Part shown: positions 17,956 to 26,908 of the stretch, one piece after another
Position numbering within the stretch: position 1 is the stretch's first letter
Layout: each line of letters starts with the position of its first letter
Sequence record: MK327931.1
Strand: one strand, 5' to 3'
Length of the DNA stretch: 64,000 nt
Source: Escherichia phage vB_EcoM_G17
Notes under the pieces: generated by a model
What the model was told of the DNA's origin: nothing
Seen by the model: only the letters and a program-made list of their open reading frames with translations
Databases searched by the model: none
Translations under genes and position numbers: made by a program

Positions 17956-18774
17956 TTAATTAGTTCGAGTATTATATTCGTACTCAAATGTATATACTAA
18001 ATCTTTATCACAGTTAGGGTTACTTGCATCTAAAATGTCACTATTAGTAATCATCCATTCAATGTAATTCAATGGAACTGTACTCATTGGCTCACCTTTG
18101 TGTTTACCAAATGGCATGAATTGATAACGCATTGGTGTGTTGCAGAAAGTTACAATTTGCTCACCAATATCACCATTAGGTTCGATATGTCCACGTTCGA
18201 TTGCAATTTCAACTAATTTGATTAGAACCTGATAACACATAAACACATCGTCTTTTGCTGCGTGTGCATTAACAGGTCGATGAACATCACGATAACATCC
18301 AAACTTATACCACAAATAACTTAGAGTTAAGTTTTTAAATTCAATATCTTCTGCGAACATTTTCTTAGCAAGACGAAGGGTACAAATCCATTTATTTTCA
18401 TCAAGTAAGTACTGTGAAATTGAGTTACGATATTTATATTCGTTATCTACCATCATTCTACGGTCAAATTGTACATTATGACCAACAAAATACTTACGGC
18501 ATCCCATAAGTGCATCAATGTTATCTAAATCATCTTTATACCCAACACAATTAGCTACATCCTCAGTACTGATAAAGTGCACAGCAGATGCCTCTGGTGG
18601 AATATCTTTCAAGGGTTTGTATCTCAATGTATAGTTATCAATAGTATCAATGTTTTCATGTGAAGTATGTGGATACGAGATACTAAATTCAATAATATCA
18701 TCTTCACTCTCAACCCCAGTAGTTTCAGTATCTAGAACTGCTACATTTGATAAAAACTCATTTAATTTTGTCAT
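17956..18774 (-). CDS. DnaQ-like 3'-5' exonuclease (DEDDh) with C-terminal DUF3820-like extension
   Basis: Exo I VLDTETTG, Exo II FVGHNVQFD, Exo III HAAKDD; C-terminal ...MPFGKHKGEPMSTVPLNYIEWM... resembles the DUF3820 motif. Functional analogue of T4 DexA. Confidence 0.7.
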   Translation of the reverse strand: MTKLNEFLSNVAVLDTETTGVESEDDIIEFSISYPHTSHENIDTIDNYTLRYKPLKDIPPEASAVHFISTEDVANCVGYKDDLDNIDALMGCRKYFVGHNVQFDRRMMVDNEYKYRNSISQYLLDENKWICTLRLAKKMFAEDIEFKNLTLSYLWYKFGCYRDVHRPVNAHAAKDDVFMCYQVLIKLVEIAIERGHIEPNGDIGEQIVTFCNTPMRYQFMPFGKHKGEPMSTVPLNYIEWMITNSDILDASNPNCDKDLVYTFEYEYNTRTN

Positions 18775-18785
18775 TTTATTCTCGC

Positions 18786-18812
18786 ATAGAAAAAGGACGC
18801 GATATGCGTCCT
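18786..18812 (-). terminator. Rho-independent terminator (minus strand)
   Basis: aggacgc-gatat-gcgtcct stem-loop followed on the minus strand by UUUUUCU. Confidence 0.55.
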
Positions 18813-18821
18813 TAATGATAA

Positions 18822-19283
18822 TTATTCTAAACGTGCATCCTCAATACCAGCGGCACGTAGTCTCACAATATTGTTTAACTGAAAAGCTTTCATCTCTAAG
18901 GATTTAACAATACTTGAATATGTATTTCTTATATAAGATACCTCGTTTATAAGTTCTGCTAACTCACAAACATCTTTATCACCTTCAACATACTTTTTAC
19001 AGTCAGATGAAGATAGTGCACGGCGGTATCCTTCGAGAAAGTATTTGAACTTCTCGGCTTGTACCTGACGCATTTCAATTTCTAACATTTCCAATACTGC
19101 TTCAAGTTCTTGAAGCTGGCTTAGACGCGTCTCATGCCAGCCAGGAATCTCTTGAGCAATTTTTTCAATGATGCCAATCTTCTTTACTTCACGACGAGCT
19201 TCTTCAACTTCGTTGTTAAAGAACTCAATCATTTCAATAATTTTAGATTTATCATCTTTGATAATCCAATGCCAAGGTTTCAT
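18822..19283 (-). CDS. Hypothetical helical protein, possible UvsY-like recombination mediator
   Basis: 153 aa, immediately downstream of uvsX; helical, contains DKDV; size similar to T4 UvsY (137 aa). Assignment is context plus weak resemblance. Confidence 0.3.
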   Translation of the reverse strand: MKPWHWIIKDDKSKIIEMIEFFNNEVEEARREVKKIGIIEKIAQEIPGWHETRLSQLQELEAVLEMLEIEMRQVQAEKFKYFLEGYRRALSSSDCKKYVEGDKDVCELAELINEVSYIRNTYSSIVKSLEMKAFQLNNIVRLRAAGIEDARLE

Positions 19284-20401
19284 TATTCCTCACTAATATC
19301 CACATCAGTACCAAAAGTTTCATCACCTTTTTCTTCTTCTTTAACTTCTTCAATCAAAGGATGATTTTTAAATTGATGCATTACCAAATCAAGACATGAA
19401 TCTTCATTACGCATCCACTCTTTGCGATATTTTAGAATCTGTTCGCCAGTTACAATATCAACATACAATAGACGGTTACCTGATTTAGTGATTAGACCGT
19501 ATTTTTCAAACATATCTAGTAGACCACTACGTGGGTCCATACCTTTATCCCAAGGAATTTTAATTTCTACATCTTCGAACGGCTTGTTGTAACGAGTCTT
19601 CATGACTTTACATTTAGCACGAATACCATTTACTTCGGAAGTTTTATTTCCGTCTTCATCTTCTTTAAGTTTTAATTTACCCATTGCGATAACCATAGAT
19701 GAAGCATAAATCAAGCCACTACCACCTGAAACTTTAGGATCTGGGTTAAACATGTCCTGAGATTCATAACTGTGGTTAACGCAAACCATACCAATGTTCA
19801 ATGAACCAATAGAGTTTACACAGTTTGTGATATATGCTTTAAGCTGTTTGGGTTTATGACCCATGTCACCTTTAAGGTTACCCGCTTTCATTTGATCATT
19901 GGCTACTTCAGTGTTTAGCATACCAATTGAATCAATAATAAACAATACTTTTTGACGTTCATCTTTAGGTGTATTTTCGTATTCTTTACGATATCCTTCA
20001 ATGAACTCATAGGTGAATTTTGCAACGTCACCAATCATACCCATATTGACTTTCAAAAGTTTTTCTTCAGAAGTGTCAACACCAAGTGCTTGAAGCCAAT
20101 CTGAATCCAATGCGTTCTCTGAGTCAATCATAACAACAAAGATGCCTTGTTTTTGAGCTTCACGTGCAATATTACCAGATACGATAAAAGATTTACCACT
20201 ACCTGATTCACCAGCAAACATCGTTACTTTGCCTAGTGGGATACCACGGTCAAAATAGCCACTGATGCGATAATTTAGTGCATAGTTACCAGTACTAACC
20301 CATGTATCTGGATCATGAAAACCAACACTAACACCAGTATTCTTTTTAACACTACCAGTACTGTTTTTAAGAATGTTCGCAAAACCACTTGTCATTTTCA
20401 T
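19283..20401 (-). CDS. uvsX: RecA-like recombinase UvsX
   Basis: 372 aa. Walker A FAGESGSGKS and RecA-core layout; ATG with AAGGAG SD; acidic C-terminus. Confidence 0.85.
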   Translation of the reverse strand: MKMTSGFANILKNSTGSVKKNTGVSVGFHDPDTWVSTGNYALNYRISGYFDRGIPLGKVTMFAGESGSGKSFIVSGNIAREAQKQGIFVVMIDSENALDSDWLQALGVDTSEEKLLKVNMGMIGDVAKFTYEFIEGYRKEYENTPKDERQKVLFIIDSIGMLNTEVANDQMKAGNLKGDMGHKPKQLKAYITNCVNSIGSLNIGMVCVNHSYESQDMFNPDPKVSGGSGLIYASSMVIAMGKLKLKEDEDGNKTSEVNGIRAKCKVMKTRYNKPFEDVEIKIPWDKGMDPRSGLLDMFEKYGLITKSGNRLLYVDIVTGEQILKYRKEWMRNEDSCLDLVMHQFKNHPLIEEVKEEEKGDETFGTDVDISEE

Positions 20402-20423
20402 AATTCGCTCCTTGAATTTTATG

Positions 20424-20452
20424 AAATAAAACGGGGCAAACTCCGTTGCCCC
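20424..20452 (-). terminator. Rho-independent terminator after gp32
   Basis: ggggcaa-actccg-ttgcccc stem followed on the minus strand by GUUUUAUUUC. Confidence 0.55.
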
Positions 20453-20470
20453 TTAACTTTTCAAAAACTA

Positions 20471-21523
20471 TTACTTACCTTGTTGTTTCAAACGAGCAAC
20501 TAGTGCAGATGCAGATAGTTGTTCTTTTGGTGCTTCAGGAGTGGTTGCTGCTGGGGTAGCGACTGGAGTTACTGGAGCAGCTTGTGGGGCTGGTGTAACT
20601 GGAGCAGTAGGTGCTACTGGTGCAGGTGCTGACTCTTGTTGTACTGGAGCAGGAGTTGGTTTTGATTCAGTAACAGTTCCAGAGTTAGGTTTTGGTACAC
20701 CTGCTGGACGATATGCAAATGCCCAACGTGCTGGATCATATGCTTCACCATTTACTGATGCTTCGAACATTTCTTCAATTGCTTTCAACTCTTCTGGAGT
20801 TGGTTGTTTTGGCATAAAATCATTTAGATTGTATAGGCCATATTTTTCAATTGCTGCTAGTTCTTCTTCGTTTAGTGGACGCTCAGACATGGAGAATTGA
20901 GACATGTCGTAGCTATTATAACCACCACCATTCTTAGTTTTAACAATACCAAAATCACGACCTTGAACGTAGTGAGTTGGAGACTCTTTGATGCCTGGGT
21001 TTAGCAGGATGGATTTAACTTTATCAAAGATATCTTTGTTAGCCAGAATACGACGAATTGGATTTTCTGGTGCAATGTCGTCTTTTACTGCAACGCTATC
21101 AGGAGCAATAAAACATTGCATTAGATAGGTTTTCTTCTTCCAGTAACGACCAGCCATTGCTTTTAGTTCTTCGTTCCCTGTTTCATTCGCACTTTGGAAC
21201 CATTGACGTACTTCTTTCAGAACCGGACAGGATTTAGGAACCCACATTTCGTTACAAGGTACTTGAACGGTAACTTTATCAGTGTGCATACCGACTACAC
21301 CATTGAAAGTTAGGTTAATCATGTCACGTTCACGCCAGAAGAATGGGTTAGACTCATCTGCATCTGGTAGAAAACGTAGGTTTAGTGGTTCGTTATAAGG
21401 TACGTTCCAGAAAGCTAAGAACGAATCAGCTTTACGCTCGCCAGTAAATGTACCATTCTTTTGAGCTTCTGCTTTTTCTTGTTCTGCTTTTAGGTGTGCA
21501 CGAATTTCAGCTAGAGATTTCAT
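20471..21523 (-). CDS. gp32: Single-stranded DNA-binding protein (T4 gp32-like) with Pro/Ala-rich C-terminal tail
   Basis: 350 aa. ...LNLRFLPDADESNPFFW..., ...YLMQCFIAPDSVAVKDDIAPENPIRRIL... parallel gp32 core motifs as recalled; ATG with AAGGAAG SD. Confidence 0.7.
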   Translation of the reverse strand: MKSLAEIRAHLKAEQEKAEAQKNGTFTGERKADSFLAFWNVPYNEPLNLRFLPDADESNPFFWRERDMINLTFNGVVGMHTDKVTVQVPCNEMWVPKSCPVLKEVRQWFQSANETGNEELKAMAGRYWKKKTYLMQCFIAPDSVAVKDDIAPENPIRRILANKDIFDKVKSILLNPGIKESPTHYVQGRDFGIVKTKNGGGYNSYDMSQFSMSERPLNEEELAAIEKYGLYNLNDFMPKQPTPEELKAIEEMFEASVNGEAYDPARWAFAYRPAGVPKPNSGTVTESKPTPAPVQQESAPAPVAPTAPVTPAPQAAPVTPVATPAATTPEAPKEQLSASALVARLKQQGK

Positions 21524-21650
21524 ATATATCTTCCTTGATTTTGGGTTTCTTTGTTATTTGTTAATTGGCTTCAATGTTTCAGAAACTTCATTGTTCCTTC
21601 AACGTTTTACATTATAGCACAGGTTTTTATACTGTCCCATATTTTTTTAA

Positions 21651-26908
<5,258 letters not shown>

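Follow-up and report, generated by a model that had tools for sequence, protein, structure and literature searches.

The acidic C-terminal tails carried by the single-stranded DNA-binding proteins (SSBs) of Escherichia coli (SSB), phage T7 (gp2.5) and phage T4 (gp32) act as interaction hubs and as DNA mimics that autoregulate binding. E. coli SSB is a homotetramer and gp32-type proteins are cooperative monomers; for the linker of E. coli SSB a condensate-driving role has also been proposed. In the adenovirus DBP and HSV-1 ICP8 proteins, a 17-residue C-terminal arm and a C-terminal helix, respectively, hook onto the neighboring monomer and give rise to cooperative filaments. T4 gp32 contains in addition a zinc-binding subdomain with the ligands His64, Cys77, Cys87 and Cys90. 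The C-terminal domain of T4 gp32 is acidic and a helix within its C-terminal region (residues 248-270) docks on the Dda helicase, to which the peptide 271-301 bound more weakly than the peptide 248-270 (He et al., PMC11551737). In the gp32-Dda crystal the core helix KKIWDKINAMI touches the N-terminal helix of the neighbor (PMC11551737).

This article describes the C-terminal tail of a gp32-type SSB encoded in a 64,000-nucleotide stretch of Escherichia phage vB_EcoM_G17 (MK327931.1), referred to here as the window. In the jumbo-phage genome and proteome papers and the one comparative review consulted, only "T4 gp32 orthologues" are mentioned and a description of the gp32-type tail was not found. 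The reading favored here, with some reservation, is that the tail is a tethered protein-docking helix, a counterpart of the T4 A-domain or of the bacterial SSB linker-plus-tip with its charge inverted.

The SSB gene and its family

The gene product is identified as a gp32-type SSB with a predicted OB-fold core, in agreement with the first-pass annotation of this DNA, which had called it gp32-like. Pfam PF08804 (gp32) matches residues 49-248 with a score of 30.4 bits, above the cut-off of 26.8, and phrog_1192 ("single strand DNA binding protein") matches residues 1-348 at 1.9e-101. A Foldseek search with the AlphaFold2 (AF2) model, a single-chain prediction run with a 99-sequence alignment, retrieved the RB69 gp32 core 2a1k (E 1.1e-9, with a target TM-score of 0.70), T4 1gpc (9.2e-9) and 8gme (2e-8), the next match having E = 0.11. 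The SSBs of PBECO4 and 121Q are 100% identical to this protein, and an identical SSB was detected by mass spectrometry in virions of phAPEC6 (gp204, 38.89 kDa), so the protein is made. At E<=1e-3 the homologue clade comprises at least 1028 clusters (50% identity), with RaK2, PBECO4/121Q, GAP32, CBB, PA5oct, Atu_ph07 and XacN1 among its members. The UvsX and UvsY genes lie directly downstream and form a conserved module with the SSB gene; the order structural protein - gp32 - UvsX - UvsY is kept even in a relative with ~47% identity, and the gene of T4 gp32 also stands in a replication/recombination context.

The positions of the features discussed below are collected in Table 1.

Table 1. Features of the SSB gene and its surroundings, with positions in the window.
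Feature	Position	Strand	Basis
gp32-type single-stranded DNA-binding protein gene	20471..21523	-	350 codons plus stop; profile, structure and identity matches
N-terminal helix, residues 4-22 (SLAEIRAHLKAEQEKAEAQ)	21458..21514	-	AF2 helix, pLDDT 64-69
Folded OB-fold core, residues 30-276	20696..21436	-	pLDDT above 90 (AF2) and Foldseek
Core helix, residues 163-173 (KDIFDKVKSIL)	21005..21037	-	AF2 helix; phmmer alignment to 1gpc
Disordered Pro/Ala/Thr/Val-rich linker, residues 277-333	20525..20695	-	Composition, entropy, pLDDT, identity drop
Tandem repeat within the linker, imperfect, 27-nt unit, 2.4 copies	20559..20622	.	TRF
Conserved C-terminal tip, residues 334-350 (EQLSASALVARLKQQGK)	20474..20524	-	AF2 helix and conservation
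Tip helix, residues 338-348	20480-20512	-	AF2
TAA stop codon	20471..20473	-	Common to all relatives examined
Terminator-like hairpin GGGGCAAC-GGAG-TTTGCCCC, then GTTTTATTT	20424..20452	-	Between SSB stop and uvsX ribosome-binding site

Core, N-terminal helix and zinc site

Sequence identity of the core to T4/RB69 gp32 is only ~15-16%. The N-terminal helix occupies the place of the B (cooperativity) domain of T4 gp32 and follows the family consensus S-L-A-E-I-R-A-K-L-K-A, in which R8 and A9 are nearly invariant. However, T4 gp32 carries at this end the basic KRKST "LAST" motif, whereas the window SSB starts with MKSLAEIR and has no KRKST-like motif, the net charge of the first 25 residues being +1 here and +4 in T4 gp32. 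In a phmmer comparison with 1gpc the core helix KDIFDKVKSIL aligns with the neighbor-contacting KKIWDKINAMI of T4 gp32, and on the strength of this alignment it may be taken as a candidate docking site. At the level of sequence, the His-Cys3 zinc site of T4 gp32 is only partly kept: the position of Cys90 in T4 is Leu102 in the window SSB (SCPVC versus SCPVL). Across the clade the only invariant Cys residues are C90 and C99, and His80 is variable, RaK2 being devoid of it.

Extent and composition of the tail

The whole tail spans 74 residues (20474-20695), the low-complexity sequence starting at about residue 277 (window position 20695), and the protein ends in ...PTPAPVQQESAPAPVAPTAPVTPAPQAAPVTPVATPAATTPEAPKEQLSASALVARLKQQGK followed by the stop. 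The first-pass annotation had placed a low-complexity tail at 20471-20620; the tail is real, but that span holds only the stop and the last 49 codons. Its description of a flexible-looking linker closed by a short basic helix is confirmed, and the linker is predicted to be disordered, a check that it had asked for. Residues 278-337 are modeled by AF2 as coil with low confidence (pLDDT 43-60) and no secondary structure, ahead of the tip helix. The linker is composed of P (28%), A (21%), T (16%) and V (11%), and its 25-residue Shannon entropy reaches a minimum of 2.08 bits at residues 300-325, where all residues are P, A, T, V or Q. No lower value occurs among the 19,595 stretches of 25 residues in the ORFs of the 64-kb window that are 80 aa or longer; the mean is 3.49 and the sd 0.22. 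The tail has a pI of 9.44 and a net charge of +2, the core a pI of 5.48.

The linker is also hypervariable. Compared with EC.P1, A4 and Turkey5 it is 33-47% identical with 9-17 gap columns, against 94-95% identity in the core. Among 119 homologues its length ranges from 16 to 100 aa (median 59), and the pooled composition is A 21%, P 15%, T 15%, V 12% and Q 10%; the linker of XacN1 is K/E/P/A-rich and that of some other relatives is acidic. The 27-nt tandem repeat serves as a substrate for in-frame indels: in SP27 exactly 27 nt are absent between CTGCTCCAGT direct repeats, and in E9.1 18 nt are absent. A PDB sequence search with the tail yielded as sole match an Ala/Pro-rich stretch of chain 7q5s_A, which was not significant (E = 0.78). 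Taken together, the comparisons indicate that the Pro/Ala/Thr stretch is a hypervariable spacer and not a conserved feature of the SSB tail.

Conservation of the C-terminal tip

The picture is reversed at the extreme C-terminus, where the last 20 residues are 95-100% identical to those of EC.P1, A4 and Turkey5; across Asteriusvirus the tip is 95-100% identical. The first-pass annotation had proposed comparing the C-termini of related phages; in this comparison the tip is conserved and the Pro/Ala/Thr-rich part is not. The tip sequence LSASALVARLKQQGK (as a peptide, EAPKEQLSASALVARLKQQGK) has a net charge of +3 in its last 15 residues and no acidic residue, and the helix 338-348 contains three basic and zero acidic residues. 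The pLDDT of this helix is moderate, 56-69 in the window SSB and 78 in a RaK2-type model, and its hydrophobic moment is 0.34. Codon changes in the tip among Asteriusvirus relatives are mostly silent (2-4 synonymous, 0-1 non-synonymous). A motif S-x-x-[D/A]-L-[L/V]-A-[R/K]-L-[K/R] can be written for the tip and is kept from RaK2 to PA5oct, Atu_ph07, RsoM2USA and XacN1; it is matched by 116 of 119 close homologues and by 72 of 83 representatives at 50% identity. Family-wide, L341 and L345 are hydrophobic in 100% of the sequences and position 342 in 99%, A343 is Ala in 83%, and the basic positions are K/R in only ~70%; over the last 15 residues the net charge varies across the clade from -1 to +3 (median +2). 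The conserved element of the tail is the last ~15 residues, with purifying selection visible on the last 20.

In eleven homologues the tip motif occurs a second time, within the linker, for instance in RaK2 (AASDLLNRLKT), and in the AF2 model of a RaK2-type protein both copies are helical (315-320 and 349-359). In the linker of other relatives, PA5oct among them, there is a DDxPF motif like that of the E. coli SSB tip; a search of the window SSB tail for [DE]x[DE]-hydrophobic-P-[FWY] found none. With such second copies and embedded motifs, the tail behaves like a support for short putative docking motifs.

Comparison with T4-type gp32 and other SSBs

T4/RB69 gp32 and the window SSB have in common a homologous OB-fold core preceded by an N-terminal helix, and a C-terminal region that lies outside the fold, is disordered and closes with a short amphipathic L-L-x-x-L end. 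The main difference is one of charge. The T4 tail is Ser/Asp-rich and strongly acidic (net -11 in the last 50 aa, -6 in the last 15, pI 4.05 for residues 255-301) whereas that of the window SSB is rich in Pro, Ala and Thr and neutral, its tip being basic, so that the charge partition between core and tail is inverted (pI 5.48/9.44 in the window SSB versus 7.56/4.05 in T4 gp32). According to the first-pass annotation T4 gp32 has an acidic C-terminal interaction domain "instead" of such a tail. The contrast in acidity is confirmed, but "instead" overstated it, since T4-type proteins also end in D-L-L-x-x-L: 10 diverse T4-type gp32s have an acidic end of this kind (net -2 to -7 in the last 15 residues), and in a by-eye alignment of only these 10 sequences the ends DLDDLLNDL (T4), DLDDLLAGL (RB69) and DALLADL (KVP40-type) have the hydrophobic spacing of A-L-V-A-R-L here and D-L-L-A-K-L in relatives. 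The same spacing on both sides indicates that the general layout, namely a core, a disordered tether and a short terminal helix, is common to T4-type gp32 and the window SSB, and that charge is what differs. In addition, T4-type proteins terminate with the last hydrophobic position or a few residues after it, whereas this clade continues for 4-8 more residues, mostly basic or polar. The Dda-binding helix 248-270 of T4 gp32 is located upstream of the extreme end DLDDLLNDL, which is the part comparable to the window tip. From the charge inversion, a different mode of partner recruitment by the SSB tail may reasonably be inferred.

The architecture also resembles that of E. coli-type SSB, with an OB core, a Pro-rich variable linker and a short conserved end motif (SSB-Ct, DDDIPF). 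In both, a variable low-complexity linker is followed by a tip conserved beyond the linker, and some relatives of the window SSB have the DDxPF-like motif embedded in their linker. Homology between the cores, however, is undetectable, and the tips of E. coli SSB and T7 gp2.5 are acidic, have an aromatic end and fold back on the DNA-binding site, whereas the window tip is a basic helix without DDxPF. Adenovirus DBP and ICP8 are likewise viral SSBs with a flexible C-terminal extension whose short end element may dock on a neighbor, but their folds are unrelated, and neighbor docking is structurally demonstrated there and a weakly supported hypothesis for the window SSB. As for the linker, those of the lipoyl domains of 2-oxoacid dehydrogenase E2 are Ala/Pro-rich, extended, semi-rigid and protease-sensitive tethers, and the A-P-V-T runs of these linkers and of a fatty-acid-synthase chain have the same kind of composition as the window linker. 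They show no homology to it and join two folded domains, not a domain to a 15-residue helix.

Proposed role of the tail

In the tethered docking helix reading, residues 277-333 would be an intrinsically disordered, probably extended spacer whose sequence and length drift freely, selection apparently acting on its role as a flexible tether only. Residues ~334-350 would form a short amphipathic helix that is the selected, functional element, with L341, V342 and L345 together with A343 on its hydrophobic face and R344, K346 and K350 as basic flanks. Judged by the analogous A-domain of T4 gp32, linker and tip of E. coli SSB and tail of T7 gp2.5, the tip is most likely a tethered docking peptide, which would bind a groove on a phage replication or recombination protein while the core coats ssDNA. 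Candidate partners are UvsX and UvsY, the polymerase, helicase and primase, and another SSB molecule; docking would concentrate the partner on SSB-coated DNA. Because the tail is neutral to basic and not acidic, it cannot act as an electrostatic mimic of ssDNA, and the acidic-tail autoinhibition of T4 gp32, E. coli SSB and T7 gp2.5 is for the same reason probably absent or replaced in the window SSB.

A large clade of gp32 homologues keeps the layout of core, leash and tip, but its leash is neutral and its conserved tip is a basic helix. Given the charge of these two elements, partner recognition and autoregulation in the clade cannot be electrostatic in the classical way. The emphasis of the first-pass annotation is also corrected, as the eye-catching Pro/Ala/Thr stretch is disposable and the inconspicuous last 15 residues are selected. 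The tip offers a small and clean target, a peptide of 15 residues of which three are hydrophobic and conserved, for studying how the proteins of replication and recombination are arranged on ssDNA in Rak2-like jumbo phages, several of which are candidates for phage therapy.

Alternative explanations

The tail could in principle have no function and be either read-through sequence annotated by mistake or a repeat that expanded neutrally, as its low complexity, its repeats and its frequent indels would allow, but this is extremely improbable. All relatives share the stop codon and the invariant tip, indels among them are all in-frame, and relatives bearing the tip motif reach cores that are only ~24-42% identical to the query (tblastn). 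The linker has a GC3 of 0.11, the tip one of 0.12 and the core one of 0.28, with A/T-ending codons throughout; the local rise in GC stems from codon positions 1 and 2. The two other frames of the tail contain 4 stops each, and the terminator-like hairpin and its T-run lie 19 nt downstream of the SSB stop. These observations rule out read-through or mis-annotation, which the first-pass annotation had called unsupported in view of the open frame and consistent codon usage. Were the linker itself the functional element, whether entropic spacer, bristle or condensate driver at replication sites, with the terminal helix of minor importance, one could point to a long disordered segment that no member lacks (median 59 aa), that is kept in spite of a high rate of indels and that forms the most extreme low-complexity segment of the 64-kb window. 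Only its presence is conserved, however: its sequence, length (16-100 aa) and chemistry (PAT-rich, KEPA-rich in XacN1, acidic) all vary, while the tip is conserved residue by residue, so that selection falls on the tip, the linker looks like a leash, and a primary function of the linker is improbable. It is still harder to credit that the tip binds nucleic acid, for added affinity or DNA bridging, or a membrane in place of a protein. C-terminal membrane-targeting helices are found in MinD and FtsA, the hydrophobic moment of a MinD-type targeting sequence (0.27) is comparable to that of the tip helix, the latter is amphipathic, and the last 15 residues have a net charge of +3. Yet the best conserved positions are L341, V342, L345 and A343 and not the basic ones, some clade tips lack net positive charge, the aromatic or bulky residues typical of membrane anchors are missing, and T4-type proteins keep the hydrophobic pattern in an acidic context, which favors a hydrophobic protein-protein contact.

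A further, unlikely explanation is that the C-tip is not an enzyme recruiter but repeats, at the end of a long tether, the N-terminal cooperativity (B-domain) helix of gp32, and that it would dock on a neighboring SSB core or compete with the neighbor's N-helix and thereby build or tune cooperative filaments in the manner of adenovirus DBP and ICP8. The family consensus of the C-tip, S-A-A-D-L-L-A-R-L-K-A, is similar to that of the N-helix, and by BLOSUM62 the C-tip falls (median) in the top 0.4% of same-protein 11-mers when compared with its own N-helix. Among 10 diverse T4-type and Ackermannviridae gp32s, a C-tip matrix of 11 columns places its best match within the first 25 residues of 6 proteins and one of 8 columns does so in 7, against a mean of 2.7-3.1 for column-permuted matrices (P = 0.05 and 0.022, respectively). 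The N-terminus of Vibrio phage VAP7 gp32, MSSLLARLKANKGQ, is nearly that of clade C-tips such as SAMDLLAKLNANKGQ, and the T4 core helix that contacts the neighbor is conserved. On the other hand, the likeness is largely compositional (Ala/Leu/Lys helices), the permuted matrices are already biased to the N-terminus and the excess is marginal. When the N- and C-matrices were scanned in the window, the reciprocal matches ranked 7th and 4th of 20,701 positions, behind a major head protein, a virion structural protein, ribonucleotide reductase and DNA polymerase; as unrelated proteins outscore them, such matches arise by chance and are not used as evidence. The two motifs diverge where they are most conserved: at position 6 the N-helix has an almost invariant Arg (124/128) and the C-tip Leu/Val, and at position 2 the N-helix has Leu and the C-tip Ala/Thr/Pro. 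Own pairs of N-helix and C-tip score not significantly better than cross pairs (10.81 vs 10.54, P = 0.23), lineage-specific co-variation being absent in this permutation. An underpowered MI-APC search for covariation between tip and core (171 sequences, Neff ~88) gave a top value of 0.24, below the core-core 99.9th percentile of 0.266, with scattered matches that define no docking site, and neither supports nor excludes self-docking.

In its fullest form, which we hold to be rather unlikely, this explanation would have the acidic regulatory tail of classical SSBs replaced, in the jumbo-phage clade, by a long neutral leash ending in a copy-like N-terminal cooperativity helix, so that two arms, a short N-terminal and a long C-terminal one, would hook neighboring cores. 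If so, linker length would set long-range bridging or self-limiting cooperativity, the duplicate helices of RaK2 and the DDxPF motifs of PA5oct type would add valency and recruit host proteins, and the mode of self-organization would be one undescribed for prokaryotic SSBs.

On the opposite strand, an ORF of 119 aa (20541..20900, +) with the start MVAAGVATGVTGAACGAG was rejected as an artefact: it mirrors the GCN/CCN/ACN-rich codons of the linker and overlaps the conserved SSB frame.

Identity and Surroundings of the SSB Gene

The window derives from a PBECO4/121Q-type jumbo coliphage (Asteriusvirus), and the 1.4 kb around the tail of its SSB, the protein that binds single-stranded DNA, are 100% identical in PBECO4 and 99.7-100% identical in 121Q, phAPEC6 and many others. 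GenBank already lists the gene as SSB. The protein scores 30.4 bits with the Pfam gp32 profile, whose cut-off is 26.8, and it matches phrog_1192, "single strand DNA binding protein", at 1.9e-101. In an AlphaFold2 model based on 99 homologues the core (residues 30-277) shows pLDDT >90, and significant PDB neighbors are confined to the RB69/T4 gp32 cores plus the gp32-Dda complex, at E 1e-9 to 1e-6; the first match beyond gp32 structures has E 0.11.

The order 430-aa virion structural protein, gp32-type SSB, (small ORF), RecA/UvsX, ..., 153-aa UvsY-sized protein is common to window positions 17956-23002 and a ~47% identical relative (locus L022, contig JACCDX010421536.1), in which a terminase large subunit gene lies a few genes upstream. 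Both promoter-like sites fall within the 192-nt region 5' of the SSB gene.

Features of the SSB locus in the window
Feature	Position	Strand	Remark
SSB gene	20471..21523	-	ORF, 350 aa
UvsX-like recombinase	19283..20401	-	directly downstream of SSB, same strand
UvsY-like mediator	18822..19283	-	downstream of SSB, same strand
Exonuclease		-	downstream of SSB, in same-strand group with UvsX-like and UvsY-like genes
Virion structural protein gene			upstream of SSB
Terminator-like hairpin	20424-20452	-	GGGGCAAC-GGAG-TTTGCCCC, then GTTTTATTT; between SSB stop and uvsX ribosome-binding site
Promoter-like site	21714..21687	-	GGGACA, 16-nt spacer, TG-TATAAT; upstream of SSB gene
Promoter-like site, near-identical twin	21638..21611	-	GGGACA, 16-nt spacer, TG-TATAAT; upstream of SSB gene

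The identical phAPEC6 protein (gp204, 38.89 kDa) was detected with 4 peptides in purified virions by ESI-MS/MS, as was its RecA/UvsX-like neighbor gp203 (PMC7247149), which accounts for the "structural protein" annotations of the SSB gene; SSB may be packaged, or it may simply co-purify with the virions. The PA5oct orthologue also carries the annotation "structural protein, ESI-MS/MS".

Anatomy and Coding Status of the Tail

The first-pass annotation described a Pro/Ala/Thr-rich low-complexity tail, a flexible-looking linker ending in a short basic helix, at 20471-20620. The sequence it quoted is correct; the coordinates cover the last 49 codons and the stop codon but miss the start of low complexity at about residue 277 (window 20695). 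The description is borne out by the composition of the linker (Pro 28%, Ala 21%, Thr 16% and Val 11% in residues 277-333) and by its 25-residue entropy minimum of 2.08 bits, the lowest of 19,595 windows from all ORFs 80 aa or longer in the 64-kb window (mean 3.49, sd 0.22). The model gives no secondary structure to residues 278-337, where pLDDT is 43-60, and then a helix at 338-348; the last 15 residues include 3 basic and 0 acidic ones.

The tail is genuine coding sequence, and read-through of a stop, already discounted in that annotation, is excluded. GC3 in the tail is 0.11-0.12, with A/T-ending codons as in the core, which places the source of the local GC peak at the first and second codon positions; the remaining frames are interrupted by stops, a hairpin and T-run lie 3' of the SSB stop, and this stop is common to all relatives compared. 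A GTG-initiated antisense ORF of 119 aa (20541-20900, plus strand), rich in Gly/Ala/Val/Thr, mirrors the linker codons; it is almost certainly not a gene but a side effect of the sense strand being GCN/CCN/ACN-rich.

A Variable Linker and a Constant Tip

Comparisons included 120 close homologues, 150 representatives at 50% identity (drawn from the 1028 clusters of a profile search at E<=1e-3) and the SSB genes of 21 named phages. Among Asteriusvirus SSBs the core is 94-100% identical, linker identity falls to 33-47%, with gaps in 9-17 columns, and identity over the final 20 residues is again 95-100%; codon differences in the tip are synonymous in 2-4 cases versus 0-1 non-synonymous. In-frame linker indels separate near-identical phages: in SP27 exactly 27 nt are missing between CTGCTCCAGT direct repeats, a length equal to the period of an imperfect tandem repeat at 20559-20622, and E9.1 lacks 18 nt. 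Family-wide, the linker measures 16-100 aa (median 59) and its chemistry varies: that of the window protein is PAT-rich, that of XacN1 K/E/P/A-rich, and other members have acidic linkers. The C-terminal end follows a consensus, S-[A/T]-x-[D/A]-L-[L/V]-A-[R/K]-L-[K/R]-A, found in RaK2, PA5oct, Atu_ph07, RsoM2USA and XacN1; hydrophobic residues make up 100% at both Leu positions and 99% at the position in between, and Ala is at 83%. Since the linker is variable and the tip constant, the tip is the conserved, selected element; judged by these alignments, in which the pattern is unambiguous, the conspicuous Pro/Ala/Thr run that had first drawn attention is the leash of the tip.

Additional motifs occur within the linker. 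A second copy of the tip motif was found in 11 of 119 homologues including RaK2, and in a RaK2-type protein both copies were modeled by AlphaFold2 as helices (315-320 and 349-359). A motif resembling the E. coli SSB tip, [D/E]-x-[D/E]-hydrophobic-P-[F/W], is present in 14 of the 83 distant representatives with a tail (~17%; P0109, P0110, P0120, P0123, P0133, P0135, P0138, P0148, P0164, P0184, P0188, P0189, P0205, P0262), in forms such as DDDIPF, DDIPF and EDDVPF, at a fairly constant 30-49 residues from the C-terminus (68 in one case). The PA5oct linker (locus L018:601-1587) also has one (DDLPWED); a search of the window protein for D-D-x-P-F/W gave none. With these second copies and SSB-tip-like motifs the tail behaves like a platform for short docking motifs, and the D-D-x-P-F/W element may mimic the host SSB tip and recruit host proteins.

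Comparison With T4-Type gp32

The T4 gp32 sequence was confirmed (residues 1-275 via tblastn, whole protein from the T4 locus) and 10 diverse gp32s from Straboviridae, Kyanoviridae, Ackermannviridae, Eucampyvirinae and Menderavirus were sampled. The last 15 residues are acidic in all ten (net -2 to -7; T4 last 50 residues, net -11), whereas tip charge in the jumbo-phage clade runs from -1 to +3, with +2 as the median. Charge partition over the whole protein is inverted, core/tail pI being 5.48/9.44 in the window protein and 7.56/4.05 in T4. Several T4-type proteins nevertheless share an amphipathic end with equal hydrophobic spacing, most clearly the sampled Straboviridae (T4 DLDDLLNDL, RB69 DLDDLLAGL, RB43 DLDKLLDL and KVP40-type DALLADL; ALVARL in the window protein and DLLAKL in relatives). 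The contrast with the acidic T4 C-terminus drawn in the first pass therefore holds for charge and fails for architecture. The SSB is a gp32-family member with the familiar layout of core, disordered linker and terminal motif; distinctive are the neutral linker and the charge-inverted tip, kept across a very large jumbo-phage clade.

The T4 zinc site (His64, Cys77, Cys87, Cys90) is partly kept in SSB residues 80-102 (window ~21215-21286, minus strand). C90 and C99 are the sole invariant Cys in the clade, Leu102 occupies the T4 Cys90 position (SCPVL vs SCPVC), and His80 is not conserved, RaK2 being without it; the subdomain that binds zinc in T4 may be degenerate here, or other ligands may serve.

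Possible Roles of the Tail

The tail is somewhat more probably than otherwise a disordered tether presenting a short amphipathic docking helix for another protein. The OB core would coat ssDNA while the tethered tip helix docks onto its partner, giving the tail a role equivalent to that of the T4 A-domain and of the linker and tip in bacterial SSB. T4 gp32 has been shown to dock Dda helicase through a helix of its C-terminal region, residues 248-270 (PMC11551737). Candidate partners would be UvsX and UvsY from the conserved adjacent module and, further, replisome proteins. As the tail is not acidic it would not mimic ssDNA electrostatically, and classical acidic-tail autoinhibition is probably absent.

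Adenovirus DBP and ICP8 have C-terminal arms with a role in hook-on self-association, and it is conceivable, if rather unlikely, that the tip acts likewise as a copy of the N-terminal cooperativity helix (residues 4-22). The two consensus sequences are alike (S-L-A-E-I-R-A-K-L-K-A in the N-helix, S-A-A-D-L-L-A-R-L-K-A in the tip), although key positions differ, a nearly invariant Arg of the former corresponding to Leu/Val in the latter. The gp32 N-terminus of Vibrio phage VAP7 (Ackermannviridae; MSSLLARLKANKGQNTKALKERLAQQGQ, locus L017:468-1541) has two tandem L-x-x-R-L-K/A helix motifs; this N-terminus (MSSLLARLKANKGQ) comes very close to the tip of some clade members, its first copy being nearly identical to C-terminal tips of some jumbo-phage SSBs (SAMDLLAKLNANKGQ). 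A tip scoring matrix found its best match within the N-terminal 25 residues in 6-7 of 10 T4-type proteins, but column-permuted controls favored the N-terminus too (mean 2.7-3.1 of 10), leaving P = 0.05 and 0.022. Lineage-specific co-variation between N-helix and tip was not found (P = 0.23), and tip-core coupling gave no signal. The N-terminal region of T4 gp32 is a helix contacting helix 141-152 of the neighboring gp32 (PMC11551737), and the latter is recognizable in the window protein (KKIWDKINAMI in T4 vs KDIFDKVKSIL). The conservation pattern is fitted less well by the remaining readings: a linker functional in itself, as spacer or condensate, is improbable, binding of DNA or membrane by the tip slightly more so, and a non-functional tail very improbable.

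The searchable literature yielded no account of the tail or of the basic tip that is conserved in it. The finding alone opens no long-standing question; the basic tip should be mildly surprising to SSB specialists and gives a well-defined 15-residue experimental handle. As a separate observation, the C-terminus of the UvsX-like recombinase (window 19283-19350, minus strand) is strongly acidic (…EEVKEEEKGDETFGTDVDISEE), its charge being complementary to that of the basic SSB tip, whose gene lies immediately upstream.
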